DNA from: a plasmid
Assembly (NCBI RefSeq): GCF_053078305.1
Contig: NZ_CP166875.1
DNA length: 64,000 nucleotides
Reading direction: 5' to 3' (one strand)
Shown: positions 28,984 through 63,239 of the stretch, piece by piece
Numbering within the stretch: the stretch's first letter is position 1
Layout: every line of letters starts with the position of its first letter
Made by a program: the position numbers and the translations under genes
Notes under the pieces: model-generated
Told to the model about the DNA's origin: nothing
What the model saw: only the letters and a program-made list of their open reading frames with translations
The model's database searches: none

Positions 28984-29445
28984 ATGAAGAAATATATACC
29001 ACTGGTATTATTTGTTTTTTCATGTCAGGTATTTTCTGCTGATATTCATGGACGGGTTGTGCGTGTTCTGGATGGCGATACCATTGACGTTATGTTATCT
29101 CAGCATCCGGTGCGTGTCCGTCTTGTTAATATTGATGCACCTGAAAAGAAACAGGACTATGGCCGGTGGTCTGAAAAAATAATGAAATCTCTGGTTGCGG
29201 GAAAAACGGTTACTGTCACATATTTTCAGCGAGATCGTTATGGTCGTATTCTCGGGCAGGTTTATGCACCAGACGGAATGAATGTTAATCAGTTTATGGT
29301 CCGTGCAGGCGCTGCATGGGTTTATGAGCAGTACAACACCGATCCTGTTCTTCCCGTCCTGCAGGGAGAAGCACGACAGCAGAAACGTGGTCTGTGGGCA
29401 GACAGCGCTCCTGTTCCGCCCTGGGTATGGCGCTCACGGAAATAA
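28984..29445 (+). CDS. secreted thermonuclease (staphylococcal nuclease-like)
   Basis: Signal peptide plus SNase-like motifs; ATG at 28984 preceded by ggagag. Confidence 0.75.
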   Translation: MKKYIPLVLFVFSCQVFSADIHGRVVRVLDGDTIDVMLSQHPVRVRLVNIDAPEKKQDYGRWSEKIMKSLVAGKTVTVTYFQRDRYGRILGQVYAPDGMNVNQFMVRAGAAWVYEQYNTDPVLPVLQGEARQQKRGLWADSAPVPPWVWRSRK

Positions 29446-29532
29446 TGATATTTCTGTGGCTATTGAGTTCTCATTGAAATGCGATATTTAAAAGTATGAA
29501 GCATATTACATTATTAACTTATTTCTCTGTTA

Positions 29533-29931
29533 ATGAAAGGTGAACAAATGAACTATCAGGCAGTATCAGAATTAATCACATCGTCTAATCATAATGTTCT
29601 TATTGTGGGGGACTCAGCTTCTGAAGTTGATAGCTTTTTAAATAAACTGAATATTACTGATTATAAGTATTATGATTTCAGCCAGATTTACAGTTGTTCT
29701 GACAGAACATTAAATGATTATGCGGTTATTTTTATCAGGGATGCACTGAACGCCAGTGAGCATATTATTATTTTTAATTGTACAGGATGGCCTGATTTGA
29801 ATAATGAATCTGCCGTCATGCAGTTTGCCAGAGTGGCACGAAAATCAGGAAAACAACTGATAGTCGCAGTAAGAGAACAGGATATGAAAAAAATGGAAGC
29901 AGAGTTTGGAAGGATCATAAAAATCCACTGA
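29533..29931 (+). CDS. hypothetical protein
   Basis: 132-aa ORF; stop abuts conserved hairpin element copy 2. Confidence 0.4.
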   Translation: MKGEQMNYQAVSELITSSNHNVLIVGDSASEVDSFLNKLNITDYKYYDFSQIYSCSDRTLNDYAVIFIRDALNASEHIIIFNCTGWPDLNNESAVMQFARVARKSGKQLIVAVREQDMKKMEAEFGRIIKIH

Positions 29932-30005
29932 CGCCTTCGCGTTGCTCAGTTGTCCAACCCCGGGGACGGGAAAAAGCAAGTTTTCCCCGCCCCCGGCGTT
30001 TCTGT
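29931..30005. repeat. conserved ~75-bp hairpin element, copy 2
   Basis: Same conserved flanks and stem-loop position as copy 1. Confidence 0.7.
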
Positions 30006-30210
30006 AGTGAAAAGCGGGAAATGGAGGGAATGGTCAGTAACAGGGAATGTGGTATTATCGCGGCGGGTGTCTGAGCCTTTCTGGTTCAGGCAAGACGCAG
30101 GTACTAGAAATGCGAAGACCCCACTTGTTAATCCATTAACTCGTGAGGCCTGCATGAAGTACTTGAACACTACTGATTGTAGCCTCTTCCTTGCAGAGAG
30201 GTCAAAGTTT

Positions 30211-30360
30211 ATGACGAAATATGCCCTTATCGGGTTGCTCGCCGTGTGCGCCACGGTGTTGTGTTTTTCACTGATATTCAGGGAACGGTTATGTGAGCTG
30301 AATATTCACAGGGGAAATACAGTGGTGCAGGTAACTCTGGCCTACGAAGCACGGAAGTAA
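30211..30360 (+). CDS. Hok/Gef-family type I toxin (SrnB/PndA-like)
   Basis: 49-aa peptide with N-terminal TM helix; in-frame upstream leader ORF (from 30154) as in srnB/pnd loci. Confidence 0.8.
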   Translation: MTKYALIGLLAVCATVLCFSLIFRERLCELNIHRGNTVVQVTLAYEARK

Positions 30361-30643
30361 GCTGCCGGGCGGGGACGGAAGTCCCCGCTTTCCGGAAGTG
30401 TGAGGTATTTCAGGGGCAGACACCCGACATGCCAGAAACCGCCGGTCCCGCCCGGGGCCGGCACACAGGTTAAGGCATTTCCTGTTTTTCAGCCATTTCG
30501 CAACAAAAATCACATTAAACAACAGTAATCACCGTTGATTTGTGCGCCAACACAGATCTTCGTCACAATTCTCAAGTCGCTGATTTCAAAAAACTGTAGT
30601 ATCCTCTGCGAAACGATCCCTGTTTGAGAATTGAGGAGGCGAG

Positions 30644-30904
30644 ATGTCGCAGACAGAAAATGCAGTGACTTCCTCATTGAGTCAAAAGCGGTTTGTGCGC
30701 AGAGGTAAGCCTATGACTGACTCTGAGAAACAAATGGCCGCTGTTGCAAGAAAACGTCTTACACACAAAGAGATAAAAGTTTTTGTCAAAAATCCTCTGA
30801 AAGATCTCATGGTTGAGTACTGCGAGAGAGAGGGGATAACACAGGCTCAGTTCGTTGAGAAAATCATCAAAGATGAACTGCAGAGACTGGATATACTAAA
30901 GTAA
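30644..30904 (+). CDS. copB: CopB/RepA2 transcriptional repressor of repA
   Basis: 86 aa, matches remembered R100/R1 CopB; RBS gaggagg. Confidence 0.9.
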
Positions 30905-31024
30905 AGACTTTACTTTGTGGCGTAGCATGCTAGATTACTGATCGTTTAAGGAATTTTGTGGCTGGCCACGCCATAAGGTGGCAGGGAACTGGTTCTGATG
31001 TGGATGTACAGGAGCCAGAAAAGT

Positions 31025-31115
31025 GAAAACCCCGATAATCTTCTTTAACTTTGGCGAGTGAGAAAGATTACCGGGGCCATCTAAAAACCGTATAGCCAAC
31101 AATTCAGCTATGCGG
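31025..31115 (-). ncRNA. copA: CopA antisense RNA (approximate bounds)
   Basis: CopT target motifs recognisable on + strand; exact ends not determinable by eye. Confidence 0.4.
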
Positions 31116-31128
31116 GGAGTATAGTTAT

Positions 31129-31203
31129 ATGCCCGGAAAAGTTCAAGACTTCTTTCTGTGCTCGCTCCTTCTGCGCATTGTAAGTGCAGGATGGTGTGAC
31201 TGA
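31129..31203 (+). CDS. tap: Tap/RepA6 leader peptide coupled to repA1
   Basis: 24-aa peptide [24 protein letters not shown]; stop overlaps repA1 start region. Confidence 0.7.
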
Positions 31204-32053
31204 TCTTCAACAAACGTATTACCGCCAGGTAAAGAACCCGAATCCGGTGTTTACACCCCGTAAAGGTGCCGGAACGCTGAAGTTCTGCGAAAAACTGATG
31301 GAAAAGGCGGTGGGCTTCACCTCCCGTTTTGATTTCGCCATTCATGTGGCGCATGCCCGTTCGCGTGGTCTGCGTCGACGCATGCCACCGGTGCTGCGTC
31401 GACGGGCTATTGATGCGCTGCTGCAGGGGCTGTGTTTCCATTATGACCCGCTGGCCAACCGCGTCCAGTGTTCCATTACCACACTGGCCATTGAGTGCGG
31501 ACTGGCGACAGAGTCCGGTGCAGGAAAACTCTCCATCACCCGGGCCACCCGGGCCCTGACGTTCCTGTCAGAGCTGGGACTGATTACCTACCAGACGGAA
31601 TATGATCCGCTTATCGGGTGCTACATTCCGACCGATATCACGTTCACACCGGCGCTGTTTGCCGCCCTTGATGTGTCTGAGGATGCAGTGGCAGCTGCGC
31701 GCCGCAGCCGTGTGGTATGGGAAAACAGACAGCGCAAAAAGCAGGGGCTGGATACCCTGGGTATGGATGAGCTGATAGCGAAAGCCTGGCGTTTTGTCCG
31801 TGAGCGTTTCCGCAGTTACCAGACAGAGCTTAAGTCCCACGGCATGAAACGTGCCCGTGCGCGCCGCGATGCAGGCAGAACCCGCCAGGACATTGTCACC
31901 CTGGTGAAACGGCAGCTGACGCGTGAAATCGCGGAAGGGCGTTTCCGGGGAAGCCTGGAGGCCGTGAAGCGCGAAATCGACCGTCGTGTGAAGGAACGCA
32001 TGATAATGTCGCGTAACAACAACTACACACGGCTGGCCACTGCCTCCCCCTGA
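31196..32053 (+). CDS. repA1: RepA1 replication initiator (RepFIIA)
   Basis: GTG start at 31196; 285 aa; near-identical to remembered R100 RepA1. Confidence 0.92.
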
Positions 32054-32224
32054 GTTTTACCTCATCTGAATAATCCGGCCTGCGCCGGAGGCATCTGCAC
32101 GCCTGAAGCCTGTCAGCGAACAAAAAAACAGCACCACATACAAAAAACAATCTCATCATCCCGCTTCTGGTGCATCCGGCCCCCCTGTTTTCGATACAAA
32201 ACATGCCTCACTGACGGGGAATTT

Positions 32225-32420
32225 TGCTTATCCACATTTAACTGCAAGGGACTTCCCCATAAAGTTACAACCGTTCATGTCATAAAGCGCCAGCCGCCAG
32301 CCTTACAGGGTGCAATGTATCTTTTAAACACCTGTTTATATCTCCTTTAAACCACTTAACTACATTCATTTAAAAAGAAAACCTATTCACTGCCTGTCCT
32401 GTGGACAGACAGATATGCAC
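32225..32420. other. candidate oriR of the FII replicon
   Basis: DnaA box TTATCCACA at 32228..32236 followed by AT-rich DNA ~170 bp downstream of repA1. Confidence 0.4.
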
Positions 32421-32623
32421 CTCCCACCGCAAGCGGCGGGCCCCGACCGGAGCCACTTTAGTTACAACACTCAGATACAACCACCAGAAAAACCCAAGTC
32501 CCGCGCAGAACTGAAACCACAAAGCCCCTCCTCATAACTGAAAAGCGGCCCCGCCCCGGCCCAAAGGGCCGGAACAGAGTCGCTTTTAATTATGAATGTT
32601 GTAACTATACTCCATCATTGCTG

Positions 32624-32897
32624 TCAGTATTCTGGCTGGAAGTCCTCAGTACACGCTCGTAAGCGGCCCTCACGGCCCGCTAACGCGGAGATACGCCCCG
32701 ACTTCGGGTAAACCCTCGTCGGGACCACTCCGACCGCGCACATAAGCTCTATCATAGCTGACAGCGGGTATGGCTTTGCAGGGTGGGGATGGGTAAGGTG
32801 AAATCTATCAATCAGTACCGGCTTACGCCGGGCTTCGGCGGTTTTACTCCGGTATCACATGTAACCACAGCGTGCCGCCTTACATGCGCTGACGCGC
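32624..32897. repeat. ~270-bp direct repeat, copy 1 (copy 2 at 34506..34779)
   Basis: Long near-identical GC-rich segment with multiple internal palindromes. Confidence 0.85.
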
Positions 32898-32988
32898 ATA
32901 AACAACAAGTTGCTACATTAGCTTACAGGTTAATTCACCTTGCATAAGATTAGCATATAGGTTAATGTTTATCGAAATGGGAGGTCAT

Positions 32989-33318
32989 ATGTTTAGCGTT
33001 GTTTATCACCCGGAAGCCAGGGAAGAAGCCACAGCATTACCCATAAAAATCAGGGTGAAGTTTGACCGTCTCATCAGCAAACTGGAATATGACGCCCGAT
33101 TACTGCGGGAACCGGATACAAAGCCCCTGGGGGATGGACTTTTTGAGATCCGCACGATGGGGACGGACATAGCCAGAGGCATCTGGGTATACCACAAAGG
33201 CAATACCATCATCATGCTCCGGGTTTTCATCAAGAAGTCTCAGAAAACGCCAGCAAAAGAAATCGATCTCGCCAAAAAGCGGTTAGCGGAGGTACTTAAT
33301 GAAACTGGTAAGCCATAA
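32989..33318 (+). CDS. RelE/ParE-superfamily toxin (HigB-like, toxin-first order)
   Basis: ATG at 32989 preceded by gggagg; ~109 aa; overlaps downstream HTH gene. Confidence 0.65.
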   Translation: MFSVVYHPEAREEATALPIKIRVKFDRLISKLEYDARLLREPDTKPLGDGLFEIRTMGTDIARGIWVYHKGNTIIMLRVFIKKSQKTPAKEIDLAKKRLAEVLNETGKP

Positions 33319-33580
33319 AGAACTGCATAACGAGTGGATGCAGGACGACGAATATCGCGCTGCATGGCAGGAAGAAGAACGTAAGGAGAAACTCAGGGAG
33401 TTGCTTGCAGAATGGCGTAAGCATGACAATTTGACAAAAGCGCAGGTTGCTGAACGCATGGGGGTTACTCCTCCTGTTATTTCCCGCCTGGAAAACAACA
33501 TCACTAAAGCCAGCATCGACACCCTGACTCGCTATGCCCATGCGTGCGGTATCAAAAAACCTGTTATTACGCTGTACTGA
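33299..33580 (+). CDS. HTH (XRE-type) antitoxin, HigA-like
   Basis: 93 aa with helix-turn-helix segment. Confidence 0.65.
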   Translation: MKLVSHKELHNEWMQDDEYRAAWQEEERKEKLRELLAEWRKHDNLTKAQVAERMGVTPPVISRLENNITKASIDTLTRYAHACGIKKPVITLY

Positions 33581-33768
33581 ACTCTGCTCTATGGCTGCCA
33601 GTTCTGGAGAAATCAGTAACTAAATTTTAATTAGCTACGTTATGGTAAATCTGCCTGATGTGTCGATTTCTCTGAAAGTAATTCGGCTTCTGTGGGCTGC
33701 GTTTGCCTTGTGCCACCTGAATGTAATCACTATGATTAAATATGATTAACAACTAATCGGATATACAA

Positions 33769-34047
33769 ATGAAAAACAATACCGCACAGGCAACAAAAGT
33801 AATTACCGCGCATGTGCCATTACCTATGGCTGATAAAGTCGACCAGATGGCCGCCAGACTGGAACGCTCCCGGGGCTGGGTTATCAAACAGGCACTTTCT
33901 GCATGGCTTGCCCAGGAGGAGGAGCGTAATCGCCTGACGCTGGAAGCCCTGGACGATGTGATATCCGGACAGATTATCGACCATCAGGCTGTACAGGCCT
34001 GGGCAGACAGCCTCAGTACTGACAATCCGTTACCGGTTCCACGCTGA
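33769..34047 (+). CDS. RHH/CopG-type antitoxin (ParD/RelB-like)
   Basis: 92 aa; one-base overlap with downstream toxin gene. Confidence 0.7.
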   Translation: MKNNTAQATKVITAHVPLPMADKVDQMAARLERSRGWVIKQALSAWLAQEEERNRLTLEALDDVISGQIIDHQAVQAWADSLSTDNPLPVPR

Positions 34048-34322
34048 TGGAACTGAAGTGGACCAGTAAGGCGCTTTCTGATTTGGCGCGGTTATATGAT
34101 TTTCTGGTGCTGGCCAGTAAACCTGCCGCCGCCAGAATGGTACAGTCCCTGATACAGGCACCGGTCATTCTGTTAACTCATCCACGTATGGGAGAACAGT
34201 TGTTTCAGTTTGAACCCAGGGAGGTCAGACGGATTTTTGCTGGCGAGTACGAAATCCGTTACGAACTTAATGGGCTGCGTTTGGGAAACGTACAATATTG
34301 TACGGTTGCGCTATTGCGGTAG
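34047..34322 (+). CDS. RelE/ParE-family toxin
   Basis: 91 aa with RelE/ParE-like C-terminal motifs. Confidence 0.75.
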   Translation: MELKWTSKALSDLARLYDFLVLASKPAAARMVQSLIQAPVILLTHPRMGEQLFQFEPREVRRIFAGEYEIRYELNGLRLGNVQYCTVALLR

Positions 34323-34505
34323 GGTGTACTCCAACGCTATACGGTATTTGGCAGACCTTTAGGGACATGAGATAACCTAAATGCAATAAGAGAAAAGCAA
34401 TAACTTAAAGGCGATAGCTGATCACGATGAATCAATCAGTTACTTATCCGCATCGATTAAAAAATGCTCCTAACGTACAATAATTCCGTTTCCCAAACCG
34501 ACCCC

Positions 34506-34779
34506 TCAGTGTTCTGGCTGGAAGTCCTCAGTACACGCTCGTAAGCGGCCCTGACGGCCCGCTAACGCGGAGATACGCCCCGACTTCGGGTAAACCCTCG
34601 TCGGGACCACTCCGACCGCGCACAGAAGCTCTCTCATGGCTGAAAGCGGGTATGGCTTAACAGGGTGGGAATGGGATAGGCGAAATCTATCAATCAGTAC
34701 CGGCTTACGCCGGGCTTCGGCGGTTTTACTCCGGTATCACATGTAACCACAGCGTACCGCCTTCCATGCCGCTGGCGCG
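34506..34779. repeat. ~270-bp direct repeat, copy 2
   Basis: Near-identical to 32624..32897. Confidence 0.85.
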
Positions 34780-34847
34780 GCATATCATGGTGACGATATC
34801 TGAATCGTTATATACTGTGTATATACGTGGTAATGACGAGGTGATAA

Positions 34848-34940
34848 ATGGCACAGGTTAATATGAGTTTAAGAATCGACGCTGAACTGAAGGATGCTTT
34901 TATGGGGTCAGCCTGGAATTCGGAAAATAAACCACGTTAA
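34848..34940 (+). pseudogene. RelB/DinJ-like antitoxin N-terminal fragment
   Basis: 30-codon ORF MAQVNMSLRIDAELKDAF... resembling the RHH strand of RelB/DinJ, ending prematurely. Confidence 0.35.
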
Positions 34941-35112
34941 GACTATTTTTTAGCCAAATGACTGTCAGGAATCCGGACGGTCGGAACATTTCGTACAGCC
35001 TTTACGTTCAGTGAGTTAGCTGGCCTGGATGTAACCACTCGTTCAACTCAATTCTCTTAGCGTGGGAAAATTTCCGTTTTCCAAGCGGACCCCTAGAAGA
35101 AGGGAAGCGATA

Positions 35113-35529
35113 TCAAGCCCAGGGATTAATAATTGATACTCCGGTTAATTCAAAATCACCAACATTTCTGGTTACAACCGTCATCCCATGTACCAGCGCC
35201 GTTGCTGCGATCAATGCGTCTCGTTCACTGCGCCTGTCGGGAACATGTAAACGAGAACAACGTAATGCAACCGCAGTATCTACAGGAAGTATCTTATCAG
35301 AAAACGCTGGTAACACATGCTGATCCATCCAAGAACGTAGCATAATCCCTTGTCGCATATCTCGACGTTCAACTTGTAATATTCCCTGTTCAAGTTCCAT
35401 TATGGAAATAACAGAAATAAAGAAATCTGCCGCATCTGTATGCAATACCCATTTTGCAACATTATTATCTATACGTCCTGTCCGAGCCTTCCGTAGCTCA
35501 GAGATAACATTAGTATCAAGAATATACAC
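35113..35529 (-). CDS. vapC: VapC PIN-domain toxin (VagD-like)
   Basis: 138 aa, MYILDTNVISE N-terminus typical of PIN domain. Confidence 0.85.
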   Translation of the reverse strand: MYILDTNVISELRKARTGRIDNNVAKWVLHTDAADFFISVISIMELEQGILQVERRDMRQGIMLRSWMDQHVLPAFSDKILPVDTAVALRCSRLHVPDRRSERDALIAATALVHGMTVVTRNVGDFELTGVSIINPWA

Positions 35530-35783
35530 TATAAAAACTCCGCAGGTTTTAAACTAACCGTAATACGAGGCGGTTCAAATTCAACTGCATCAGCATCGGG
35601 CATCGCCAGAATGTCAATGAGAGTTCGTCGTTGTTGCGTCAATTTTCGGTATTCTTCGATACTAAGAAGTACATGTGCGGTTTTACCCCGATCAGTAATA
35701 AATACTGGACCATAATTCGTGGCGCGTTTGGCTCGAGTTACATCTTGATTAAGTTCCCGACTGGATAGGGTTGTAATCTTCAT
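35529..35783 (-). CDS. vapB: VapB antitoxin (VagC-like)
   Basis: Start at MKITTL inside ORF 35529..35843; one-base overlap with vapC. Confidence 0.8.
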   Translation of the reverse strand: MKITTLSSRELNQDVTRAKRATNYGPVFITDRGKTAHVLLSIEEYRKLTQQRRTLIDILAMPDADAVEFEPPRITVSLKPAEFL

Positions 35784-35942
35784 GCTGTTGCCTTTTGATG
35801 TATATAGGTACGTTACTACATTGTAGGGCATGAAATAGTACAATGCAAGAAATGTACTTGATTAGGGGTAGTCTTCGCCGCTTGTTGCTGTCAGATATTA
35901 ATGCTAATGTATGCATACATTAGCATTAATGAGGGATGATAT

Positions 35943-36356
35943 GTGAGAGACAAAACCAGGGAGGCCATGCGGTTTTTTTTAGGCGGCAGGTGTTACACGG
36001 CTGAAAACCTTGAAAAGGATTATCTGGCTGAAGTTGCTAATTACAGTGACGACCGCTGGGAAGCACCCCAACGCGCCGCACGTCTGGCAGCTGCCGTAAA
36101 GCGTTACAAGACATCAGAAATGCTGCGCTTTATTTTTGCTACCACTGCCTACGATCCCGATCCAGATTTAACCCCGCTGACTGTGAGACGTTTGTGCAAG
36201 GCATTGTTCGGCAGAACAGGAAGCCAGTGGCTGGTTGTTGAAGTTTTTGGGGAGAAGGGGCGTCAGCACCGCAGCGCGGACAGCAATCCGGAGATGGTGG
36301 AAAAAGGGGGTTCGCGCCCATTTCCTCTAAAAGTCTCACCTTGCTTAGGTAATTAA
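35943..36356 (+). CDS. hypothetical protein whose 3' end runs into the transposon inverted repeat
   Basis: GTG-initiated ORF; C-terminal ~16 codons are encoded by the Tn left inverted repeat. Confidence 0.25.
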   Translation: MRDKTREAMRFFLGGRCYTAENLEKDYLAEVANYSDDRWEAPQRAARLAAAVKRYKTSEMLRFIFATTAYDPDPDLTPLTVRRLCKALFGRTGSQWLVVEVFGEKGRQHRSADSNPEMVEKGGSRPFPLKVSPCLGN

Positions 36357-36362
36357 TTGAAT

Positions 36363-36944
36363 TTATTTATAAAACGTTGCAATTTTAGCATCATTTTTTA
36401 TTGTTCTTTTTAACCTGAAGTACGTCGATCGAGAGATACCTGTTTTTTCTGTCACACTGCCCAGAGATTCTCCCTGTGATATAAGCTCCAACGCTGTAGG
36501 CGTTCGTGGATGCTTCTTCCTGCCAAATTTTACGCCTGCGGCAAGTGCCGCTATTCTTCCGTCGTTTGTCCGCTCCAGAATACGCTCACGTTCCGCTTCA
36601 GCTACAGCAGCAAGGATTTGGATAACCATTTTGCCCATTGTCCCTTCTGTACTGAGACCGTTCTCCAGGAACCGGATGGCGATCCCCTTTTTGTAACAGC
36701 TATCAACCACACGAATCATGTCAGCAGTGTTACGCCCCAGTCGGTCCATTTTTGTACAGATGATTACGTCGTCTTTCTCTGCACGGGCCAACAACCGCTG
36801 TAGTCCTTCCCGTTCATCAGTTGCGCCAGTCATCATATCCGTAAAAATACGATCTTCCCGTACCCCGGCATTTTTTAGCTCCGAGATTTGATGTGTTAGC
36901 TTCTGATGACTGGTTGATACCCGTGCATACCCCAATAACGCCAT
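36363..36944 (-). CDS. tnpR: serine recombinase / resolvase
   Basis: N-terminal MALLGYARVSTSHQ catalytic motif, C-terminal HTH. Confidence 0.85.
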   Translation of the reverse strand: MALLGYARVSTSHQKLTHQISELKNAGVREDRIFTDMMTGATDEREGLQRLLARAEKDDVIICTKMDRLGRNTADMIRVVDSCYKKGIAIRFLENGLSTEGTMGKMVIQILAAVAEAERERILERTNDGRIAALAAGVKFGRKKHPRTPTALELISQGESLGSVTEKTGISRSTYFRLKRTIKNDAKIATFYK

Positions 36945-37100
36945 TTTTAGTCTCACTTATCGTTTTTGACACTGCATGGTATCATAATGTACAAAATACG
37001 ATTTTTGAAACCTGCTTTTATGCTGTTTTAGACAGGTATCAGATATCTTAATATTTGATACTAGCCATATTTAACAAATATTTAGCATTTTGGTAAATGT

Positions 37101-40100
37101 ATGCAGAAGTACAAGAAAAGAATTAGTATATTAACAAAAAGTGAAATAAATGAATTATATCAAGTCCCCTCTTTTAATCCTGTTGAAAGGGATGAGTTTT
37201 TTTCGCTGGATATCAGCCTTAAAAGAGAAATTGATAAAATAATAAATATAGAAAGCAGGGTGTATCTGATATTAATAACAGGGTATTTCAGATATAAACC
37301 TGTGATTCCTGAATTTACATTAAAAGACGTAAAAAGGGATGTGAAATATATTATCCAGACATATTATAAAAACGAAAGTACTAATCTCAATTTAAACATA
37401 CCTAAAAGTACAAAGTACCGCCTTGTTAAACGAATGCTTTCTACTCTAGGATTTGAACAACTCACCCCATCTATAAAAAATGAGTTAAGTGAACGTCTGA
37501 ATGATGTTGCTACTATATGTATGGAACCAAAATATATTTTTGATGAATTACTTGCTTTTTTAGGACAGCGGCGTATAGCTCTTCCTGGATACAGTACTGT
37601 CCAGAACCTCGTTTCAGATGCTTTAAACTTTGAAAGGAAAAGGACAATTAATATTTTGTCAAAGAGAATTTATCCTGCCACTGCACAAAAGATTACATCC
37701 ATCATCCATGATGATGGAATATTAAATTCCATCAGGGGATATAATTATAGCACGAGAGACTTCTCAGCATCAGAAATAGAAAATGAATTAAGAACTCACA
37801 ATGTGATAAGTAGTATTTACTATGAAATAAAAGATATAATTAATTCATTAGGTATATCCCAGGGAAACATGGAGTACTATGCAACTATCGTAAAACACAG
37901 TACAACATTCAGACTTAAGCGACACCCTAAATGGCAAGGAATACTTTATTTGTGCTGCTACTTGTACTTCAGATACAGAGAGATAAATGATAAAATAATC
38001 ACAGCCTTCAGATATTTAGTAAAAAAACATAAAGACGCTTCAGTTTTGTTTGCAAAAGCTCGGGCAACAGAGGAAATAGATCTAATAAATAAAAAGCTTA
38101 AGTTTGCGAGTAAAATATTTAACTTCTTCGTTGATAGTAACATTGAAGACAGCATCCCTTTTGGATATGTTCGTGAAAAGGTTTTTTCACTTATATCGAA
38201 AGATGATATGCATCTTGTGAGTGAATTTTTTGACAAAAATAAAATCGATGTAATTGAATATCAATGGCAGTATATTGACAGCCATCACCTTAAGATCGCC
38301 AATTCAATCCGAAAGCTTTTTCTGGCTATAGATATAGTATATGACAACGAGAAGTCTGTTATTGGCCAGCAAATTACTGCTGCCAAGGATGATCTCAGAG
38401 GAAAAGGAAAGCTGGATGCTAAGGATCTGAGGGTAATTCATCCATCCGAGAAAAATTACATTGTAAAAGAAGGAGAAATTAACACTCAACGATTCGAATT
38501 TCATATGTACAGCAGGGTATCTAACCATCTGGAAAACGGTGTCTTTTATGCTGCGGAGAGTGAACAAAACAAGAGACTGGAAGATGATCTCATAGAACGA
38601 AGTTACTGGCATAAGAATAAATCGATTTTGATAGAGAAAACAGGCCTTGAACGACTTATCACACCAATAACGCAGACTCTTAATGAGCTGGAGAATACCT
38701 TTAGCGATAAACTGGCTCGTATAACCATTGGAATAAACTCAGATGCTAATGAGTTTGTGAAAAAACAACCACACTCCAACAGATTACAGTGGAGTCTGGC
38801 CAGTAAAAAATGGAAGACCAGCATCGATAATCCGATTTACAATCAGATAAAAAATATCGGAATAGTTGACGTAATGAAGTATGTAAACAATGAGACGAAT
38901 TTTTTGTCTGTGTTTAATGCCATATCATCCAGGAAAAATAATCTTGAAGCTGACTATAATGACCTTCTTGCCTGTATATTTGGTAATGGCGCAAATTATG
39001 GTGTTCACAGAATGGCATCTGCATCAGACCGTAGTATTGGAATACTACGTGATGTGAATGACAAATTCATTCGTCCAGAAACAACAGGAATGGCCAACAC
39101 AGTAATATCTGATGCAATTGCAAATCTTTCTGTATATAAATACTGGACGATAAATGAAGATTCTCCATTTGGAAGTGTTGATGGGCAGAAGCACACTTGC
39201 AGAATAAATACATTTAAAGCCCGTTATTCTGCCAAGTATTTCAGAAAGGGGAAAGGGGTTTCTGCGATGACACTGGTATCTAATCATGTGCCATTATCAA
39301 CTGTGGTAATTTCTCCAAATGAATATGAAGGTCATTTTGCATTTGACTTGTTATATAACAACACCAGTGAAATACAACCAAAGTCATTAGCGACTGACAA
39401 TCATGGTATAAACAACGTTAATTTTGCGATTCTTGACATTTTTGGCTATCAGTTTTCACCACGTTATGCAAAATTCAAGAAAATATTTAATGAATTATTT
39501 GATGTTATACTGGAGAGTGATAAACTCATTATAAAACTTAAAAAACAATTTAACTTTAAGCTCATTGAACATGAATGGGAAAACATCCAACATATTATTT
39601 GTTCTTTAAGCAGAAAAACAACCATTCAAAGTACGGTTGTTAAGAAGTTATCTAATACAAAGCGTAGCAACAAGACATTAGCAGCACTTCGGGAGTATGA
39701 CCGAGTTATAAAATGCATATATGTCCTGGATTATGCTGACAATAAAACCTTAAGGCAATTTGTGCAACAAGCACTGAACAGAGGTGAAGCTTATCATCAA
39801 CTAAGAAGAGCAATAGCATCAGTAAATGGAAATCAATTTCGCGGTGGTAATGACTACCAAATAGATCAATGGAACGACTGTGCGAGGTTAATAGCTAATT
39901 GTGTAATCTATTATAATTCAGCAATATTATCCAGGCTGGTCGAGAAATTTGAAAAAGAAAATAATAAAAAAGCGATAGATGTTCTGGCTAACTTATCCCC
40001 AGTAGCATGGAGACACATTCTCCTTGGAGGGAATTATTCTTTTGAAGATCAAGTTGCGATCACAAATTTGGACAGTCTTTTGGAGGGAGTAGACCCACTA

Positions 40101-40139
40101 AGTGATATCGGAGATATTGAGTCCGAATATGACGGTTAA
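37101..40139 (+). CDS. tnpA: Tn3-family DDE transposase
   Basis: 1012 aa; N- and C-terminal regions consistent with Tn3-family TnpA; low-GC codon usage. Confidence 0.85.
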   Translation: MQKYKKRISILTKSEINELYQVPSFNPVERDEFFSLDISLKREIDKIINIESRVYLILITGYFRYKPVIPEFTLKDVKRDVKYIIQTYYKNESTNLNLNIPKSTKYRLVKRMLSTLGFEQLTPSIKNELSERLNDVATICMEPKYIFDELLAFLGQRRIALPGYSTVQNLVSDALNFERKRTINILSKRIYPATAQKITSIIHDDGILNSIRGYNYSTRDFSASEIENELRTHNVISSIYYEIKDIINSLGISQGNMEYYATIVKHSTTFRLKRHPKWQGILYLCCYLYFRYREINDKIITAFRYLVKKHKDASVLFAKARATEEIDLINKKLKFASKIFNFFVDSNIEDSIPFGYVREKVFSLISKDDMHLVSEFFDKNKIDVIEYQWQYIDSHHLKIANSIRKLFLAIDIVYDNEKSVIGQQITAAKDDLRGKGKLDAKDLRVIHPSEKNYIVKEGEINTQRFEFHMYSRVSNHLENGVFYAAESEQNKRLEDDLIERSYWHKNKSILIEKTGLERLITPITQTLNELENTFSDKLARITIGINSDANEFVKKQPHSNRLQWSLASKKWKTSIDNPIYNQIKNIGIVDVMKYVNNETNFLSVFNAISSRKNNLEADYNDLLACIFGNGANYGVHRMASASDRSIGILRDVNDKFIRPETTGMANTVISDAIANLSVYKYWTINEDSPFGSVDGQKHTCRINTFKARYSAKYFRKGKGVSAMTLVSNHVPLSTVVISPNEYEGHFAFDLLYNNTSEIQPKSLATDNHGINNVNFAILDIFGYQFSPRYAKFKKIFNELFDVILESDKLIIKLKKQFNFKLIEHEWENIQHIICSLSRKTTIQSTVVKKLSNTKRSNKTLAALREYDRVIKCIYVLDYADNKTLRQFVQQALNRGEAYHQLRRAIASVNGNQFRGGNDYQIDQWNDCARLIANCVIYYNSAILSRLVEKFEKENNKKAIDVLANLSPVAWRHILLGGNYSFEDQVAITNLDSLLEGVDPLSDIGDIESEYDG

Positions 40140-40205
40140 CAACATGATAAATAATGGTTTTTATGCTAAGAGTGAGACTTTTGGAGGAAATGGGCGCAGA
40201 ACCCC

Positions 40206-52570: not shown

Positions 52571-52922
52571 GGGAATTCTCCTCTCACATGCGGCCTCCAT
52601 CAGGCCGTGCCGCACCTGTAACCGGGCGACCGCATACGAATGCAGGTGCGGCCCCGAAGCCGCATCGCGTGGAGGAGGAACGACGAAACGTGACCGGGTG
52701 AGGAGGCTGGCGACAGCGACACACTTGCATCGGATGCAGCCCGGTTAACGTGCCGGCACGGCCTGGGTAACCAGGTATTTTATTCACAGAACCGTGCGCA
52801 AAATGCTGTGGATAAGCTGGACACAGCAGTCCACAGCAGGCATACAGCCACCCCCTCAGAGAATTGAGCGTTTTTTAGTCACAATAATGACATTTGACTG
52901 TGTGGATTCAGTTATTAGAATG

Positions 52923-52938
52923 CTGTATATACATACAG
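52923..52938. promoter_or_regulatory. LexA (SOS) box CTGTATATACATACAG upstream of impC
   Basis: Matches CTGT-N8-ACAG consensus; sits ~25 bp upstream of impC start. Confidence 0.65.
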
Positions 52939-52961
52939 CAATAGAAAAGGGAGATGAGAAC

Positions 52962-53210
52962 ATGATCCGCATTGAAATTCTTTTCGACCGCCAGAGCACA
53001 AAAAACCTCAAATCAGGCACACTTCAGGCGCTACAGAATGAAATCGAACAACGTCTGAAACCACACTACCCGGAAATCTGGCTGCGTATAGACCAGGGCA
53101 GCGCCCCGTCTGTATCTGTCACAGGAGCCCGCAACGACAAGGATAAAGAACGTATCCTGTCTCTGCTGGAAGAAATCTGGCAGGACGACAGCTGGCTGCC
53201 TGCAGCATGA
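52962..53210 (+). CDS. impC: ImpC (DinI-like)
   Basis: 82-aa DinI-like protein; ATG preceded by aaaagggaga. Confidence 0.75.
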   Translation: MIRIEILFDRQSTKNLKSGTLQALQNEIEQRLKPHYPEIWLRIDQGSAPSVSVTGARNDKDKERILSLLEEIWQDDSWLPAA

Positions 53211-53644
53211 GTACCGTTTATCACCGTCCGGCTGACCCTTCAGGCGATGACAGTTACGTGCGACCGTTGTTTGCCGATCGTTGCCAGGCCGGTTTTCCTT
53301 CGCCTGCCACTGATTATGCTGAGCAGGAACTGGATCTGAACAGCTATTGCATCAGCAGACCTGCAGCCACCTTCTTTCTGCGCGCCAGCGGTGAATCGAT
53401 GAACCAGGCTGGCGTGCAGAATGGTGATCTGCTGGTAGTGGACAGGGGCGAAAAACCACAACACGGGGACATCGTTATCGCTGAGATCGACGGTGAGTTC
53501 ACCGTCAAACGACTGCTGTTGCGCCCACGCCCGGCACTGGAGCCGGTTTCAGACAGCCCGGAATTCCGCACACTGTATCCGGAAAACATCTGTATTTTTG
53601 GTGTTGTCACTCACGTGATACACAGGACGCGGGAGTTACGCTGA
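53207..53644 (+). CDS. impA: ImpA (UmuD-like, LexA-type self-cleaving protein)
   Basis: 145 aa with S24 peptidase-like motifs GESM and KRL. Confidence 0.88.
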   Translation: MSTVYHRPADPSGDDSYVRPLFADRCQAGFPSPATDYAEQELDLNSYCISRPAATFFLRASGESMNQAGVQNGDLLVVDRGEKPQHGDIVIAEIDGEFTVKRLLLRPRPALEPVSDSPEFRTLYPENICIFGVVTHVIHRTRELR

Positions 53645-54918
53645 TGTTTGCACTGGCTGATATCAACAGTTTCTACGCCTCATGTGAAAAAGTTTTCCGC
53701 CCGGACCTTCGCAACGAACCGGTCATCGTACTCAGCAATAACGATGGCTGTGTGATCGCGCGCAGCCCGGAGGCAAAAGCCCTTGGCATCAGAATGGGGC
53801 AGCCCTTGTTTCAGGTGAGACAAATGCGCCTGGAGAAGAAAATACATGTATTTTCCAGCAATTATGCGCTGTACCACAGCATGAGCCAACGGGTCATGGC
53901 TGTTCTGGAGTCGCTTTCTCCCGCAGTTGAGCCCTACTCAATTGATGAAATGTTTATTGATTTGCGGGGGATAAATCATTGCATCTCTCCGGAGTTTTTT
54001 GGTCATCAGCTCAGGGAACAGGTAAAGAGCTGGACAGGACTCACCATGGGGGTGGGCATTGCGCCTACAAAAACGCTGGCTAAAAGTGCACAGTGGGCAA
54101 CAAAGCAATGGCCACAGTTTTCCGGTGTGGTCGCGCTGACGGCAGAAAACCGTAATCGGATCTTGAAGCTACTGGGACTGCAGCCAGTTGGTGAGGTCTG
54201 GGGAGTAGGACACAGACTGACGGAAAAGCTGAATGCGCTGGGTATTAACACAGCACTGCAGCTGGCGCAGGCTAACACGGCATTCATCCGGAAAAACTTC
54301 AGCGTCATTCTTGAGCGTACGGTACGCGAACTCAACGGCGAGTCCTGCATATCCCTGGAAGAAGCACCACCGGCAAAACAGCAGATTGTCTGTAGTCGCA
54401 GTTTTGGTGAACGAATCACAGACAAAGATGCCATGCACCAGGCTGTTGTTCAGTATGCAGAGCGGGCCGCAGAGAAACTACGTGGGGAGCGTCAGTATTG
54501 CCGGCAGGTGACGACATTTGTACGGACATCCCCCTTTGCAGTAAAAGAACCCTGTTACAGCAATGCCGCTGTGGAAAAGCTTCCATTGCCCACACAGGAC
54601 AGCCGGGACATTATTGCCGCCGCATGCAGAGCCTTAAACCATGTCTGGCGTGAAGGGTACCGCTATATGAAGGCAGGAGTCATGCTGGCTGATTTCACAC
54701 CATCGGGTATAGCGCAGCCGGGATTATTTGATGAAATCCAGCCCCGTAAAAACAGTGAAAAGTTAATGAAAACACTCGATGAACTGAACCAGTCGGGAAA
54801 AGGGAAAGTGTGGTTTGCGGGGCGAGGAACCGCCCCTGAATGGCAAATGAAACGGGAAATGTTGAGTCAGTGTTATACAACTAAATGGCGAGATATTCCC
54901 CTGGCCAGGCTGGGTTAG
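53644..54918 (+). CDS. impB: ImpB (UmuC-like Y-family polymerase subunit)
   Basis: 424 aa starting MFALADINSFYAS. Confidence 0.9.
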   Translation: MFALADINSFYASCEKVFRPDLRNEPVIVLSNNDGCVIARSPEAKALGIRMGQPLFQVRQMRLEKKIHVFSSNYALYHSMSQRVMAVLESLSPAVEPYSIDEMFIDLRGINHCISPEFFGHQLREQVKSWTGLTMGVGIAPTKTLAKSAQWATKQWPQFSGVVALTAENRNRILKLLGLQPVGEVWGVGHRLTEKLNALGINTALQLAQANTAFIRKNFSVILERTVRELNGESCISLEEAPPAKQQIVCSRSFGERITDKDAMHQAVVQYAERAAEKLRGERQYCRQVTTFVRTSPFAVKEPCYSNAAVEKLPLPTQDSRDIIAAACRALNHVWREGYRYMKAGVMLADFTPSGIAQPGLFDEIQPRKNSEKLMKTLDELNQSGKGKVWFAGRGTAPEWQMKREMLSQCYTTKWRDIPLARLG

Positions 54919-54919
54919 T

Positions 54920-55336
54920 TCAGTCATCTCCGAACATATTTTCAGCGTTTCTTCTGGTCTGGTCTTCACCGTCATTTCTCGACAGACTCTGCTCTGTAAG
55001 AGGAGTACTGCAATCCACAGACGTATGGAGACCAGATTGTTTTTCCAGTAATTCAAGCAATTTCTTTTCAACCGAAAAAGCACCTGGTATCACGCTGGAA
55101 ATCACCTTATTAATATCATCCAGAGTCGTATTTTCTGTCAGTAACTCCGATATCAGCAAAGGAAGACGTTTATCTATAGCTGCAAACGCCGCACCAGTAA
55201 CTAACATCGCGCGCATGAAACGTCCCCGCTCCTTCAGTTTTTCATTTGCAATGAGCTCATCTGCTATCTTATCTCCTGTCCGTTCATCCGGGAAAAGTTC
55301 AAATGAGCAGCGTCTGGATTTATTTTCATCACTCAT
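54920..55336 (-). CDS. ParR/StbB-like partition adaptor
   Basis: 138-aa ORF immediately downstream of and overlapping parM. Confidence 0.5.
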   Translation of the reverse strand: MSDENKSRRCSFELFPDERTGDKIADELIANEKLKERGRFMRAMLVTGAAFAAIDKRLPLLISELLTENTTLDDINKVISSVIPGAFSVEKKLLELLEKQSGLHTSVDCSTPLTEQSLSRNDGEDQTRRNAENMFGDD

Positions 55337-56309
55337 TAGTCACACCACCTTTCATTTTTATCATTCCCATGACTAAATCAAACTGCGGGGATGAGCTCAG
55401 ATAAAAGCGCTCATCAGGAACCTTAGTCAGGTTCTTCACAGCCTCGGCCACAATTTCAGCCCCACCACCAACACACATTACATGTGTATAGTCGGTGAAA
55501 CGGCTGATGACATCATTAACTCGTTTAATAAGCAACTTCTGCCGTTCATTGATAACATTAATGATAGACTCACGCTGTTCAGCATTATAAATGCGACGGG
55601 AAAGGTAGTCAGGTTCATTACGGTGCACAATGATATTGTCAGCCTGGAATGAGCTCACTCTTGTATTAGCATGTACAGCCATCTGTTCCTTAACCCCGGA
55701 TGTAATCAGGGACACGCCGATATTCGGATCACACCAGGTTTTTGTAATCCCTGTCATTTTGCTACGAACATGCGACACATCAAGAGTTGTACCACCGAGA
55801 TCTACGATCAAAAGGGATTCATCATCCTCAAGCCCCGCAAGAACACTGAAACCAGCGGGAATACTTTCAGGAAGAACGGAAACACTGCGAATAACAAATG
55901 CATCACTCCCCTGCACCCGTACTTCACGCATCACATTTTTTTTCTTTCTTTCAATGTTTTGCTTATTTTTCTGATTGTTGGCGTCAAGGTATTCAGAGAT
56001 CGGCAATGTGACGATGACATCAACAGGCTGCGCTTTCAGGCCGGTCTGCTGTAGCGCATGCTGAATGGCCACAACATTCACATCACTGTACTGATAGCGT
56101 GTTTCAGTCGTTACGACAGCATCAGCACTTAATGGATCAAATGAAAACTTCTCGCCGTCGATCTCGTAATTAGCCGGGGCAGCATCATCCAGTAAACTAA
56201 AAGACCATTCCGGTTTAAAGCTGTTAGGGCTGATTAACGTTTTCACGTCACCATCCTCCAACCAGGCAAGTTTAATGTTGGTAGAACCATCATCAATAAA
56301 GATTTTCAT
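55329..56309 (-). CDS. parM: ParM/StbA actin-like segregation ATPase
   Basis: Start at MKIFIDDGSTNIKL; similar throughout to remembered R1 ParM. Confidence 0.85.
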   Translation of the reverse strand: MKIFIDDGSTNIKLAWLEDGDVKTLISPNSFKPEWSFSLLDDAAPANYEIDGEKFSFDPLSADAVVTTETRYQYSDVNVVAIQHALQQTGLKAQPVDVIVTLPISEYLDANNQKNKQNIERKKKNVMREVRVQGSDAFVIRSVSVLPESIPAGFSVLAGLEDDESLLIVDLGGTTLDVSHVRSKMTGITKTWCDPNIGVSLITSGVKEQMAVHANTRVSSFQADNIIVHRNEPDYLSRRIYNAEQRESIINVINERQKLLIKRVNDVISRFTDYTHVMCVGGGAEIVAEAVKNLTKVPDERFYLSSSPQFDLVMGMIKMKGGVTNE

Positions 56310-56722
56310 AACCAGTCTCCGTTGCTCATAAACAAATAGAAAAAACAAACATGCTTCATACATGCAATGTATATTTAATTATAATGAAAAAATGGTCTTT
56401 CTGAAAGGAGAAATACAACATAAAAACACGATAAATTGCATGTGCATTGTACACACAACTTTAAGACCAGAGGAAATCATAGATACAAAAACATTATGAA
56501 GGTTATATGTAATACATAAATGCAATATAAAAACATCTTTGACATCATGGTTCAGGTTAAGGGAAAAGGAATGACATGGTGAAACTGAGAGGAAAGGAAA
56601 GCGGTGACGAATCATGTCACCATAAACAGAAAGATGTCTAATGGGGACTCTTTAGGTACGTGAAGAATCCCCATAACGCATTTAAAAGACACACATCAGA
56701 TACCCTTAAGGTATCCGATAGT

Positions 56723-61821: not shown

Positions 61822-63239
61822 TTAAATGCCCCAGAACTTATTCGCTTTTTCCACAAGCGTTTCATCAATCAGTGCACCGGTGACAGCCATCAGTAAACCA
61901 TACCCGATAATGCCTAAAGCGCTTCCGGTAAGAATACTGAAGACCAGAGCAACAAGAGCCGTTGCGGCATTACCTGCTATGATGGTTTCTGTTTTAACAA
62001 AAAAGGACGCCAGTTATCTGTCCGGGCAGCCTTACCAAACTCAGTGATCCAGTCAGCAAAATTTGTAATTTTTCCTGCATATCCCAGTCCGCGACTGAAC
62101 CTGTTCAGATTAGACGATATATCAGACAGCTTCACAGACTCAAGGGCTGCGGCAATCGCTGCACGATCTTTTGCATTAATTTTTTTGTTAATGTCAGTCC
62201 GGTACTTTTCATACGTTTTTAATGCCTCTTCAACATTACGTATTTTCTTCCCTTTAGCCTGCCCGGCCATCTCTCTGGCTAACTGCTCAGCTTTTGCACC
62301 ATATTTTTCTGAAACTGATTTCAGGAACTCTGTTGTGAAATTAATTGCGTCTTTCGTTGCCTTCAGTTCATCCTGTTTTCTTTTCTCTTCCGCTATCTTC
62401 TGATTGATGCCGGCAAGCTGGTTACGGGTATTCTCTTTTTCCTTCAACAGGGCATTAAGAGCGTCATTTGCATGCTTTTGCTCATTTGTTCTGGCACTGA
62501 GGTTATTTCTCACCGAATTTACCGCAGATTCAGCAGAGGTGATTTTATTTCTGGCATCAAGCAATCTTTGCCGTAACTTATCCCATTCAGTAACTTCAGC
62601 ATTATAAATTTTCTTGTCACCTTCCACATCCTCTGTCACCACCGGATTCCGGTCATTCAGAATATTGCGTTTATAGTCCAGACCGGAATGAGTCAGAAGA
62701 TAATTCAGGTTTGCACGGTTATCGATGACTGCGCTGGTTGTGATTTTTATCGTATCGGCAAATCTCGGATCACCGCTCACAACAATAGAATGATTTGTTG
62801 ATGAACGCCCCGGGAATTTTTCAGAGGAAACTATCGTTTTGCCGTCAGGCGTGTTTTTCTGTTGCGTCAGCTGTTGTTCAGCTCTGGTTAATGCATTACG
62901 GGCCGTGTTAAGCGATTCCGTCACCGAACTGAGTTTATTCCGGGCCTCTGAAATGGCCCTGTCATTCCGTGTCTGCTGCTCGAGCAGACGGGCCTGTTGT
63001 GCATCAAGAACGGCAAGGGCTGCCCCGCCCTTTTTTTCCAGCTCTGACAACCGCGTATTCAGAATACCTTTTCTGCGCTCGTATTCAGCAAGCATATCAG
63101 CGGCCTTCTTGTCTGCGTTCTGCGCATCCTTCTGCCGTTTTTCAGCCTGTTCAATTAACGACCTGGCCTCGCGGGGAGATATACGAAGAGAATCAGCATC
63201 AGCAAACAGCATCCGGCTCTCTGTATGTGTCAACGCCAC
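61822..63239 (-). pseudogene. cia: colicin Ia-like pore-forming colicin, 5'-truncated and frameshifted
   Basis: 420-aa ORF matches colicin Ia from HTESRMLFADADSL onward; final ~50 codons (channel domain, ending KFWGI) are in another frame after a T-run near 62005..62015; colicin Ia N-terminus (MSDPVRITNPG...) not found in any frame upstream. Confidence 0.75.

Follow-up and report, generated by a model that had tools for sequence, protein, structure and literature searches.

Among the type II toxin-antitoxin (TA) modules described on F-like plasmids are pemIK, which adjoins the RepFIIA replicon, and yacAB, which is typical of ColV/ColBM plasmids (PMC4707298). Here we describe the TA genes found next to an IncFII replicon in a 64,000-nucleotide stretch (referred to below as the window) of the contig NZ_CP166875.1 from RefSeq assembly GCF_053078305.1, which is part of an F-like conjugative plasmid of Escherichia coli. 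Within positions 32989-35783 it carries a gp49/HigB-like toxin gene with a helix-turn-helix (HTH) antitoxin gene, a ribbon-helix-helix (RHH) antitoxin gene with a ParE-like toxin gene, a remnant of yacA and a vapBC pair. With a probability of roughly three in four, we consider this region to be a variable cargo slot just downstream of the IncFII origin, filled with known type II TA modules in differing states of repair: two of the four are still whole, in a third the toxin is damaged, and of the fourth a remnant is left.

The gene orders of the PF_gp49 and PF_ParE toxin families have been described, PF_gp49 toxins being ribosome-dependent mRNases (PMC11980606, Table 1), and gp49 toxins are always encoded ahead of their antitoxins (PMC5906591). 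The Pfam family PF05016 holds gyrase poisons and RelE-type RNases alike (PMC11980606), and in ParE toxicity has been located in the protein's C-terminal third and is lowered by C-terminal truncation (PMC6813445). Finally, elements of the type known as TIMEs (miniature elements with inverted repeats, derived from Tn3) act as recombination joints (PMC13367494, PMC4133298).

Toxin-antitoxin genes downstream of the IncFII origin

The original prediction, made from the letters alone, was that of a dense addiction cluster within 3 kb of an FII-type oriR, and its starting point stands: the components of an IncFII basic replicon are all present at 30644-32236, that is, copB/repA2 (30644-30904, plus strand; Pfam RepB-RCR_reg, 151 bits), the CopA antisense RNA (31021-31111, minus strand; Rfam CopA, 98.9 bits), repA1 (31196-32053, plus strand; TIGR03474 incFII_RepA, 581 bits) and, downstream of repA, an origin whose start is marked by a perfect DnaA box (32228-32236, plus strand; exact TTATCCACA). 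All four listed TA items were recovered at their predicted positions, and searches with family hidden Markov models (HMMs) from Pfam and NCBIfam, together with matches to both chains of the structure 6af3, returned partners of cognate kinds and no HMM sign of non-cognate pairs. The distance was underestimated, as about 3.55 kb separate the end of the cluster from the DnaA box. The wording "dense addiction cluster" is an overstatement: type II TA genes do lie beside an IncFII replicon, but no more than two modules out of four are whole, and their density is no statistical anomaly.

The first module, described beforehand as a toxin-first RelE-like/HTH pair, is intact and occupies 32989-33580. 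The gene of the gp49/HigB-like toxin (32989-33318, plus strand; 109 aa) is preceded by a Shine-Dalgarno-like GGAGG ahead of its ATG and encodes a protein which scores 81.2 bits against PF05973 (Gp49), for which the cut-off is 23.9, and which is identical to WP_000493283.1 and to its counterpart in plasmid p_STEC1585_2 (L002). It is followed, with an overlap of 20 nt, by the gene of a HigA-like antitoxin of the XRE-type HTH kind (33299-33580, plus strand; 93 aa; HTH_3, 50.8 bits), identical to WP_000780223.1. In the solved Streptococcus pneumoniae HigB-HigA complex, chain 6af3_A is matched by the toxin (E=2.7e-5) and chain 6af3_B by the antitoxin (E=2.9e-3), which also matches HigA2 (7ewc). A PF05973 score above the gathering score and a toxin gene preceding an XRE-type HTH antitoxin gene are the features of the gp49 subfamily of HigBA, and the pair shares its toxin-first order, overlapping genes and domain combination with HigBA of Acinetobacter baumannii, Tad-Ata of Paracoccus and HigBA of S. 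pneumoniae (6af3), although it is only distantly similar to these tested systems, as the E-value of 2.7e-5 to HigB of 6af3 indicates. By direct inspection, AGGTTAAT was found twice ahead of the toxin gene, in the manner of an operator repeat. Of the 72,556 records in PLSDB, the collection on which all plasmid counts given here are based, 1,215 carry the gp49/HTH pair (658 of them from Klebsiella), which makes it common on Klebsiella and E. coli plasmids, and in 58 records the pair is joined to the backbone at this exact slot.

The second intact module is the predicted vapBC pair, read from the minus strand. VapC (35113-35529; 138 aa; PIN domain, 51 bits) is one substitution away from WP_000275620.1 (V28 for A28) and aligns from end to end with the PIN toxin FitB (2h1o; E=5e-16, residues 1-137), its residues D5, E45 and D104 falling, in our reading of the alignment, on conserved acidic residues of FitB. 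The small antitoxin gene vapB (35529-35783; 84 aa; PhdYeFM_antitox, 37.1 bits) lies upstream of vapC and is translationally coupled to it by a 1-nt overlap; its product also matches TIGR01552 and YefM (2a6q, E=6e-3) and is identical to WP_000705662.1. These are the attributes of a VapBC module, which differs from FitAB and MvpA in that its antitoxin is of the Phd/YefM type and neither RHH, as FitA is, nor of the AbrB type found with Shigella MvpA, and in that the fourth acidic residue of the toxin is displaced. An operator-like inverted repeat, CATTGTA with its complement TACAATG, was seen by direct inspection ahead of vapB. This vapBC variant is rare, being found in 15 PLSDB records, all of them from E. 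coli.

Between the two intact modules lies the RelB-like fragment of the original prediction, at 34848-34940 on the plus strand, which proves to be what is left of yacA, namely its initial 19 codons behind the yacA promoter. The first 19 residues of this 30-aa open reading frame (ORF) are identical to those of the 89-aa YacA of plasmid pFHI_NMBU_11_02, a weakly RelB/DinJ-like antitoxin whose full-length form matches the RelB/DinJ model TIGR02384 at E=2e-5, below the model cut-off. From the yacA start, alignment to YacA extends over 34848-34903, after which the frame reads into a miniature element (element 2, described below). A tblastn search of the window recovered YacA residues 1-22 only and gave no hit for yacB, so that 19 of the 89 yacA codons are left of the module and its toxin gene is absent. 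The yacAB module of ColV/ColBM and other F plasmids shares the promoter region and the 19 initial codons, and there too these follow immediately on the stretch downstream of oriR; in the window, by contrast, only this stump is kept, yacA being cut at codon 19 by the miniature element.

The ParE-like toxin ends in transposon sequence

The remaining module was predicted to be an RHH/ParE-like pair, and it is present as such at 33769-34322 (RHH_1, 41.5 bits; ParE_toxin, 45.2 bits), except that the last 15 residues of the toxin are not ParE sequence. The RHH antitoxin of the CopG/ParD-like kind (33769-34047, plus strand; 92 aa) is intact and equals the p_STEC1585_2 protein in all but the choice of start codon; upstream of its gene TATGATTAA occurs twice in tandem, again an operator-like repeat noted by direct inspection. 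The toxin ORF (34047-34322, plus strand; 91 aa; PF05016 ParE_toxin) overlaps the antitoxin gene by 1 nt and is a hybrid: residues 1-76 are native, while translation of residues 77-91 runs through the inverted repeat (IR) of a second miniature element (element 1), which begins at codon 77. This allele corresponds to WP_000421250.1. Its protein ends in ...YELNG-LRLGNVQYCTVALLR, while the intact forms of p_STEC1585_2 and pRHBSTW-00177_5 (L004) end in ...YELNG/YELTG-QTIYVLRLWHTRENR. Against the Pfam ParE_toxin profile the hybrid accordingly covers positions 1-71 of 89 at the score given above, compared with 63 bits and positions 1-88 of 89 for the intact form.

What was lost can be judged from an alignment of 57 sequences, comprising the intact and hybrid alleles and 55 full-length relatives (36-70% identity) retrieved from 1.84 billion representatives. 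At its C-terminus the family has an R-x-W-H-x-R-E-x-R motif in which the conservation of H86, E89 and R91 is 90% or higher; the hybrid lacks W85, H86 and E89, with T, L and, by coincidence, R at positions 86, 89 and 91. In an AlphaFold (AF2) model of the intact toxin (predicted local distance difference test, pLDDT, 96.6) residues 78-86 form the last strand of the sheet, and this model is closest to solved ParE toxins (template modelling score 0.77-0.88; the top Foldseek hits are all ParE), ahead of RelE and YoeB. The intact allele shows the ParE fold with its N-terminal alpha-hairpin and three-stranded sheet; in the hybrid the last strand is foreign sequence, and the model of the hybrid falls to pLDDT 65 and then 41 over the two final blocks, the fold being driven by the alignment. 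The locus shares the antitoxin-first order and the RHH antitoxin with RK2 ParDE, Caulobacter ParDE1 (3kxe) and E. coli O157 PaaA2-ParE2 (5cw7), and the RHH gene stands directly upstream of the toxin gene as in any ParDE module, but it differs from them in that the final 15 residues of the toxin are transposon IR sequence, and a complete toxin with the conserved C-terminal residues is lacking. Judged from these comparisons and models, the hybrid ParE is most likely disabled and non-toxic, its antitoxin being intact.

Several points weigh against our reading of the locus, and most of them would sit well with the view that all three complete-looking pairs are functional and form a triple addiction block, in which the hybrid ParE is still toxic or has become newly active through its transposon-derived tail. 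The hybrid ORF is open and its length unchanged, the exact protein has its own RefSeq accession and occurs on at least 1,000 contigs in a larger collection, the cognate RHH antitoxin is undamaged, as would also fit retained function, and AF2 still threads the tail as a terminal strand. In addition, the fourth acidic residue of the PIN toxin VapC is not aligned with D122 of FitB, as VapC has N122 there and D125 three residues further on. A triple block nevertheless seems improbable to us: W85, H86 and E89 of the conserved motif are gone, the Pfam score is 18 bits lower with the last 18 profile positions unmatched, the tail is modelled at pLDDT 41-65 only, toxicity of ParE maps to the C-terminal third (PMC6813445), and the contig counts may merely reflect a successful plasmid lineage.

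The intact type of RHH/ParE module is found in about 2,670 PLSDB records, and the joint between ParE and the left inverted repeat (IR-L) of the element in a single one, the finished plasmid CP045714. WP_000421250.1 is publicly annotated as an ordinary RelE/ParE family toxin despite its 15 C-terminal residues of translated transposon IR. Since such annotation is automatic and takes the hybrid for a "RelE/ParE family toxin" of the normal kind, the number of functional modules would be set too high when TA genes of IncF plasmids are surveyed.

The modules as such have already been catalogued. The gp49 toxin, the HTH antitoxin, VapB and the hybrid ParE are existing RefSeq entries, the modules are found on between 15 and about 2,670 PLSDB plasmids, and the region is an ordinary F-plasmid maintenance region, so that the TA cluster as such has little to offer.

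A variable slot in the FII backbone

The conserved sequence downstream of oriR (32624-32900, plus strand; copy 1 of direct repeat D1) ends in a short hairpin, ATGCGCTGACGCGCAT (32885-32900); homology to pRHBSTW-00177_5, pMyNCGM377 and pUTI89 stops at 32899-32900, and FII plasmids diverge past this point. What follows the hairpin varies: the window has the gp49/HTH pair, pRHBSTW-00177_5 has RHH/ParE immediately after it, pMyNCGM377 has a CAAX-protease gene and then pemIK, and yacA follows in a second copy of the downstream sequence (see below) as well as in many other plasmids. Because the shared backbone stops at position 32900 and is followed by different cargo, the site is to be regarded as a variable slot, and the hairpin end of the conserved FII backbone offers a convenient typing landmark.

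It had also been proposed that other modules take the position held by pemIK in R100. The absence of pemIK is clear, as a tblastn search of the window for pemI and pemK gave no homologue (best E about 1), although pemK occurs in 4,384 of the PLSDB records, and a variable slot is supported in pMyNCGM377, a pemIK-bearing FII plasmid used here as a stand-in for R100, so that the comparison with R100 itself is an indirect one. In R100/R1-type plasmids pemIK (parD/kis-kid) lies by RepFIIA on the same side of the replicon as the TA genes of the window, and in pMyNCGM377 it is found about 0.8 kb past the equivalent of position 32900; unlike these plasmids, the window is devoid of any pemI or pemK homologue.

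Miniature elements at the module boundaries

Two short elements separate the modules. Element 1 (34272-34505, plus strand; 234 bp) has the IR-L GGGCTGCGTTTGGGAAACG... and a right inverted repeat (IR-R) which reads, as reverse complement, GGGGTCGGTTTGGGAAACGGAATTATTGTACGTTAGGA; the break in ParE reads GGGCTGCGTTTGGGAAACGTACAATATTGTACGG and its inverted partner, some 230 bp further on, ends in ...CCGTTTCCCAAACCGACCCC at 34505. Element 2 (34904-35093, plus strand; 190 bp), with the IR-L GGGGTCAGCCTGGAATTCGGAAAATAAACCACGTTAAG and the IR-R (reverse complement) GGGGTCCGCTTGGAAAACGGAAATTTTCCCACGCTAAG, interrupts yacA at codon 19 on one side and lies against the 3' end of vapC on the other. GGGGTC stands at the start of three of the four IRs, the exception being IR-L of element 1, which begins with GGGCTGCG.

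Element 1 contains neither an ORF nor a transposase gene and is related to MITESen1, a TIME, with which it is collinear at 67% global identity. The sequence of this ISfinder entry was taken from the supplement of PMC13367494. Copies of element 1 are present in 365 PLSDB records, and one of them, 100% identical, stands in another context, beside an IS66 fragment, in p_STEC1585_2. Element 2 was found in 2,167 records, 504 of which reach a coverage of 80% or more, and pRHBSTW-00177_5 carries it in a longer form (about 285 bp); the IR-L of element 2 resembles, by sequence comparison, the Tn21-type IR of TIME244, and outside the IRs no similarity to IS101, IMU, TIME244 or MITESen1 was detected. When these four named TIMEs were considered as identities for the two elements, only the match of element 1 to MITESen1 was a meaningful one. 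Both elements nevertheless have the make-up of TIMEs, being between 50 and 500 bp long (190-234 bp), free of ORFs and transposase genes, bounded by IRs of the Tn3-family type and present in many copies on enterobacterial plasmids, with the same unit found in unrelated contexts. They differ from the named TIMEs in having no 5-bp flanking repeats and in flanking TA genes and scars rather than resistance genes.

A 5-bp target-site duplication was looked for at the three Tn3-type elements of the window and was found at none: the left and right flanks are TTAAT and TCAGT for element 1, TTTAT and TAGAA for element 2, and AAAAA and TGTAT for a 3.9-kb transposon further to the right. Since no target duplication is expected at recombinant joints, this result argues, for the two miniature elements, against simple insertion but not against the assignment to the TIME type. 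Simple insertion of element 1 into parE was rejected, as there is no 5-bp duplication and the 3' end of parE is nowhere in the window. The 3.9-kb Tn3-family transposon was also considered as the driver of the miniature elements and was dismissed, its IRs being unrelated and a scan allowing up to 14 mismatches having found no match at its ends.

Two further observations concern these elements. The 12-mer GGGCTGCGTTTG occurs only twice in the window, at 34272-34283, where it forms the first 12 bases of IR-L of element 1, and at 33694-33705, the right edge of the 801-bp gp49/HTH block; judging by the match, the latter copy may be an IR relic, in which case the gp49/HTH block would also have been joined via such an element. 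In pFHI_NMBU_11_02 (NZ_CP045714.1, 3136-3260) the sequence switches, 57 bp past the joint of ParE with IR-L, to bona fide MITESen1 ends (GGGGTCAGTTTGGATATAGAGAATTATTGTACG), which shows recombination inside such elements in other plasmids too.

Duplication and proposed mosaic assembly

The sequence downstream of oriR is present a second time between element 1 and yacA. Copy 2 (34506-34847, plus strand) begins at the base directly after the outer end of IR-R of element 1 and runs into the yacA promoter region; its repeat part (34506-34784, 279 bp) is 94% identical to copy 1, its first 135 bp (34506-34640) are 100% identical to pUTI89 2820-2954, and the stretch 34506-34790 is 97.2% identical to the same plasmid. 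In 1,878 PLSDB records the downstream sequence is joined to yacA in this way.

The two halves of the region have different closest relatives. On the left, p_STEC1585_2 is 99.5% identical over 30000-34273 and pFHI_NMBU_11_02 98.5% over 31196-34329, these two being examples of the closest complete plasmids, which come from Shiga-toxigenic and animal E. coli; on the right, pSTEC2018_553-c is 98.8% identical over 34697-36305. p_STEC1585_2 contains the same parts, with ParE intact and with element 1 and the vapBC block located roughly 22-30 kb away from ParE. Every module boundary in the window coincides with a recombination or transposon scar.

Could the duplication and the juxtaposition of modules be an assembly artefact, in which repeats of two co-resident F plasmids were collapsed or mis-joined? 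The joints do fall at repeated elements, and no PLSDB record and no complete E. coli genome carries at least 80% of 32300-36400 in one place. An exact look-up of the VapC variant of the window, however, led to two independent draft E. coli assemblies with the full arrangement, GCA_000736735.1 (100% over 29113-40205) and GCA_026420205.1 (99.7% over 29114-36416), and two such assemblies argue against a mis-assembly; moreover, the two copies of the downstream sequence differ at 6% of positions and would not collapse, and the joint between ParE and IR-L is also present in the finished plasmid CP045714. An artefact is therefore an explanation to which we give next to no credence.

From the element boundaries, truncations, duplication, gene identities and distribution observed, we infer that the cluster is a recombination mosaic of two F-plasmid backbones and not a designed unit. 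One backbone would have contributed oriR, gp49/HTH and RHH/ParE, and the other a second oriR, yacAB (which would have been cut later) and vapBC. On the simplest reading, the two FII-type backbones would have been joined at copies of Tn3-derived miniature elements, either by homologous recombination or by intramolecular transposition with deletion, and the joining event would have deleted the second replicon while leaving behind the second copy of its downstream stretch. The clustering of TA genes would then not be a matter of design, since it would be a by-product of this joining. It counts against any firm account of the joining events that one sequence cannot tell their order or mechanism, and either homologous recombination between element copies or intramolecular transposition with deletion may have been at work.

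The recombination joints are marked by two unnamed miniature Tn3-type elements, which occur on hundreds to thousands of enterobacterial plasmids; elements of this kind commonly go unannotated. A broader claim, namely that such elements are general joints by which TA cassettes are swapped and stacked downstream of FII origins, and that the widespread allele in which ParE is disabled but the RHH antitoxin is whole is kept as an anti-addiction gene, is one we put forward as a speculation with little chance of being right. If it were true, the anti-addiction RHH protein would allow a plasmid lineage to displace competitors with intact RHH-ParE without killing the host.

Predicted function

The gp49/HTH and Phd/YefM-VapC pairs are probably functional, to judge from their intact genes and domains. 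In each, a labile DNA-binding antitoxin would bind the toxin and repress the operon, and loss of the plasmid would be followed by loss of the antitoxin and by inhibition of plasmid-free segregants. The activity predicted for the gp49 toxin is cleavage of mRNA in dependence on the ribosome, and that predicted for the PIN nuclease VapC is cleavage of RNA, probably tRNA or rRNA. Toxicity, neutralisation and post-segregational killing are thus predictions from family membership, and the repeats upstream of each operon are candidate operators. A promoter consensus scan gave fewer matches than shuffled sequence and was uninformative.

It may also be asked whether the modules serve mainly in conflicts between mobile elements, either as abortive-infection phage defence or, in the case of the orphan RHH protein, as an anti-addiction gene directed against the ParE of competitors. 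With intact RHH-ParE on about 2,670 PLSDB plasmids, an antitoxin already in the cell would frequently encounter a cognate toxin from outside, and TA systems are, according to parts of the literature, increasingly tied to phage defence. Weak PADLOC matches were obtained to NsnC with the gp49 toxin (E=4e-6) and to HTH_VI with the HTH antitoxin (E=5e-11), but these reflect generic domains, the other four TA proteins had no match and no defence-system architecture is apparent, while the neighbourhood of the replicon, on a conjugative plasmid of low copy number, is where stabilisation modules classically lie (PMC4707298). We regard a conflict role as rather unlikely, though less so than a triple addiction block, and prefer the reading of a slot filled with maintenance modules. 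As regards cooperation between the modules, PADLOC gave only generic matches and no evidence for it was found.

Neighbouring features of the plasmid

The FII replicon has addiction genes on either side, as a type I TA system of the hok/sok type lies on the plus strand directly upstream of copB. Its sok RNA region (30065-30221) matches Rfam RF01794 at 94.6 bits, and the ORF at 29950-30360 matches Pfam HOK_GEF over residues 91-132, the Hok domain ending at 30360. In an Rfam scan of 28-41 kb, only CopA, sok and an antisense family were found, upstream of the cluster, and no RNA antitoxin was found inside it. Further to the left are tra genes, including a 1,756-aa ORF in the position of traI (the relaxase in related plasmids), followed by finO and a thermonuclease gene.

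To the right of vapB, a hypothetical gene (35943-36305, plus strand; 155 aa in relatives) is cut at 36305 by the transposon, as its homology to 6246-6608 of the related plasmid L003 stops there; it had no Pfam, NCBIfam or PADLOC match and is not a TA gene by any of these libraries. Between it and the vapB promoter region lies a perfect palindrome of 34-36 bp, TTAATGCTAATGTATGCATACATTAGCATTAA (35897-35932), copies of which recur several times in the related plasmids L001 (pFHI_NMBU_11_02), L003 and L005.

The right boundary of the region is formed by the 3.9-kb Tn3-family transposon itself (36306-40205; IRs GGGGGTTCGCGCCCATTTCC..., inverted repeat I1), which consists of tnpR (36363-36956, minus strand; Resolvase, 130.9 bits) and tnpA (37101-40139, plus strand; DDE_Tnp_Tn3, 391 bits) only and has a low GC content of 0.363. 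On its right side the draft contig JPQG01000009.1, which is otherwise identical, has a 126-bp repeat of positions 36180-36305, where the window runs into IS66 genes. Beyond the transposon follow IS66 remnants, a leading region with psiA and a ParB-like gene, an impCAB-like operon (DinI-like protein, S24 peptidase and Y-family polymerase; 52794-54918), parM, which encodes a ParM/StbA segregation ATPase (55329-56363), and a 420-aa ORF with colicin Ia and pore-forming domains (61977-63239), which is presumably shorter than full-length colicin Ia.

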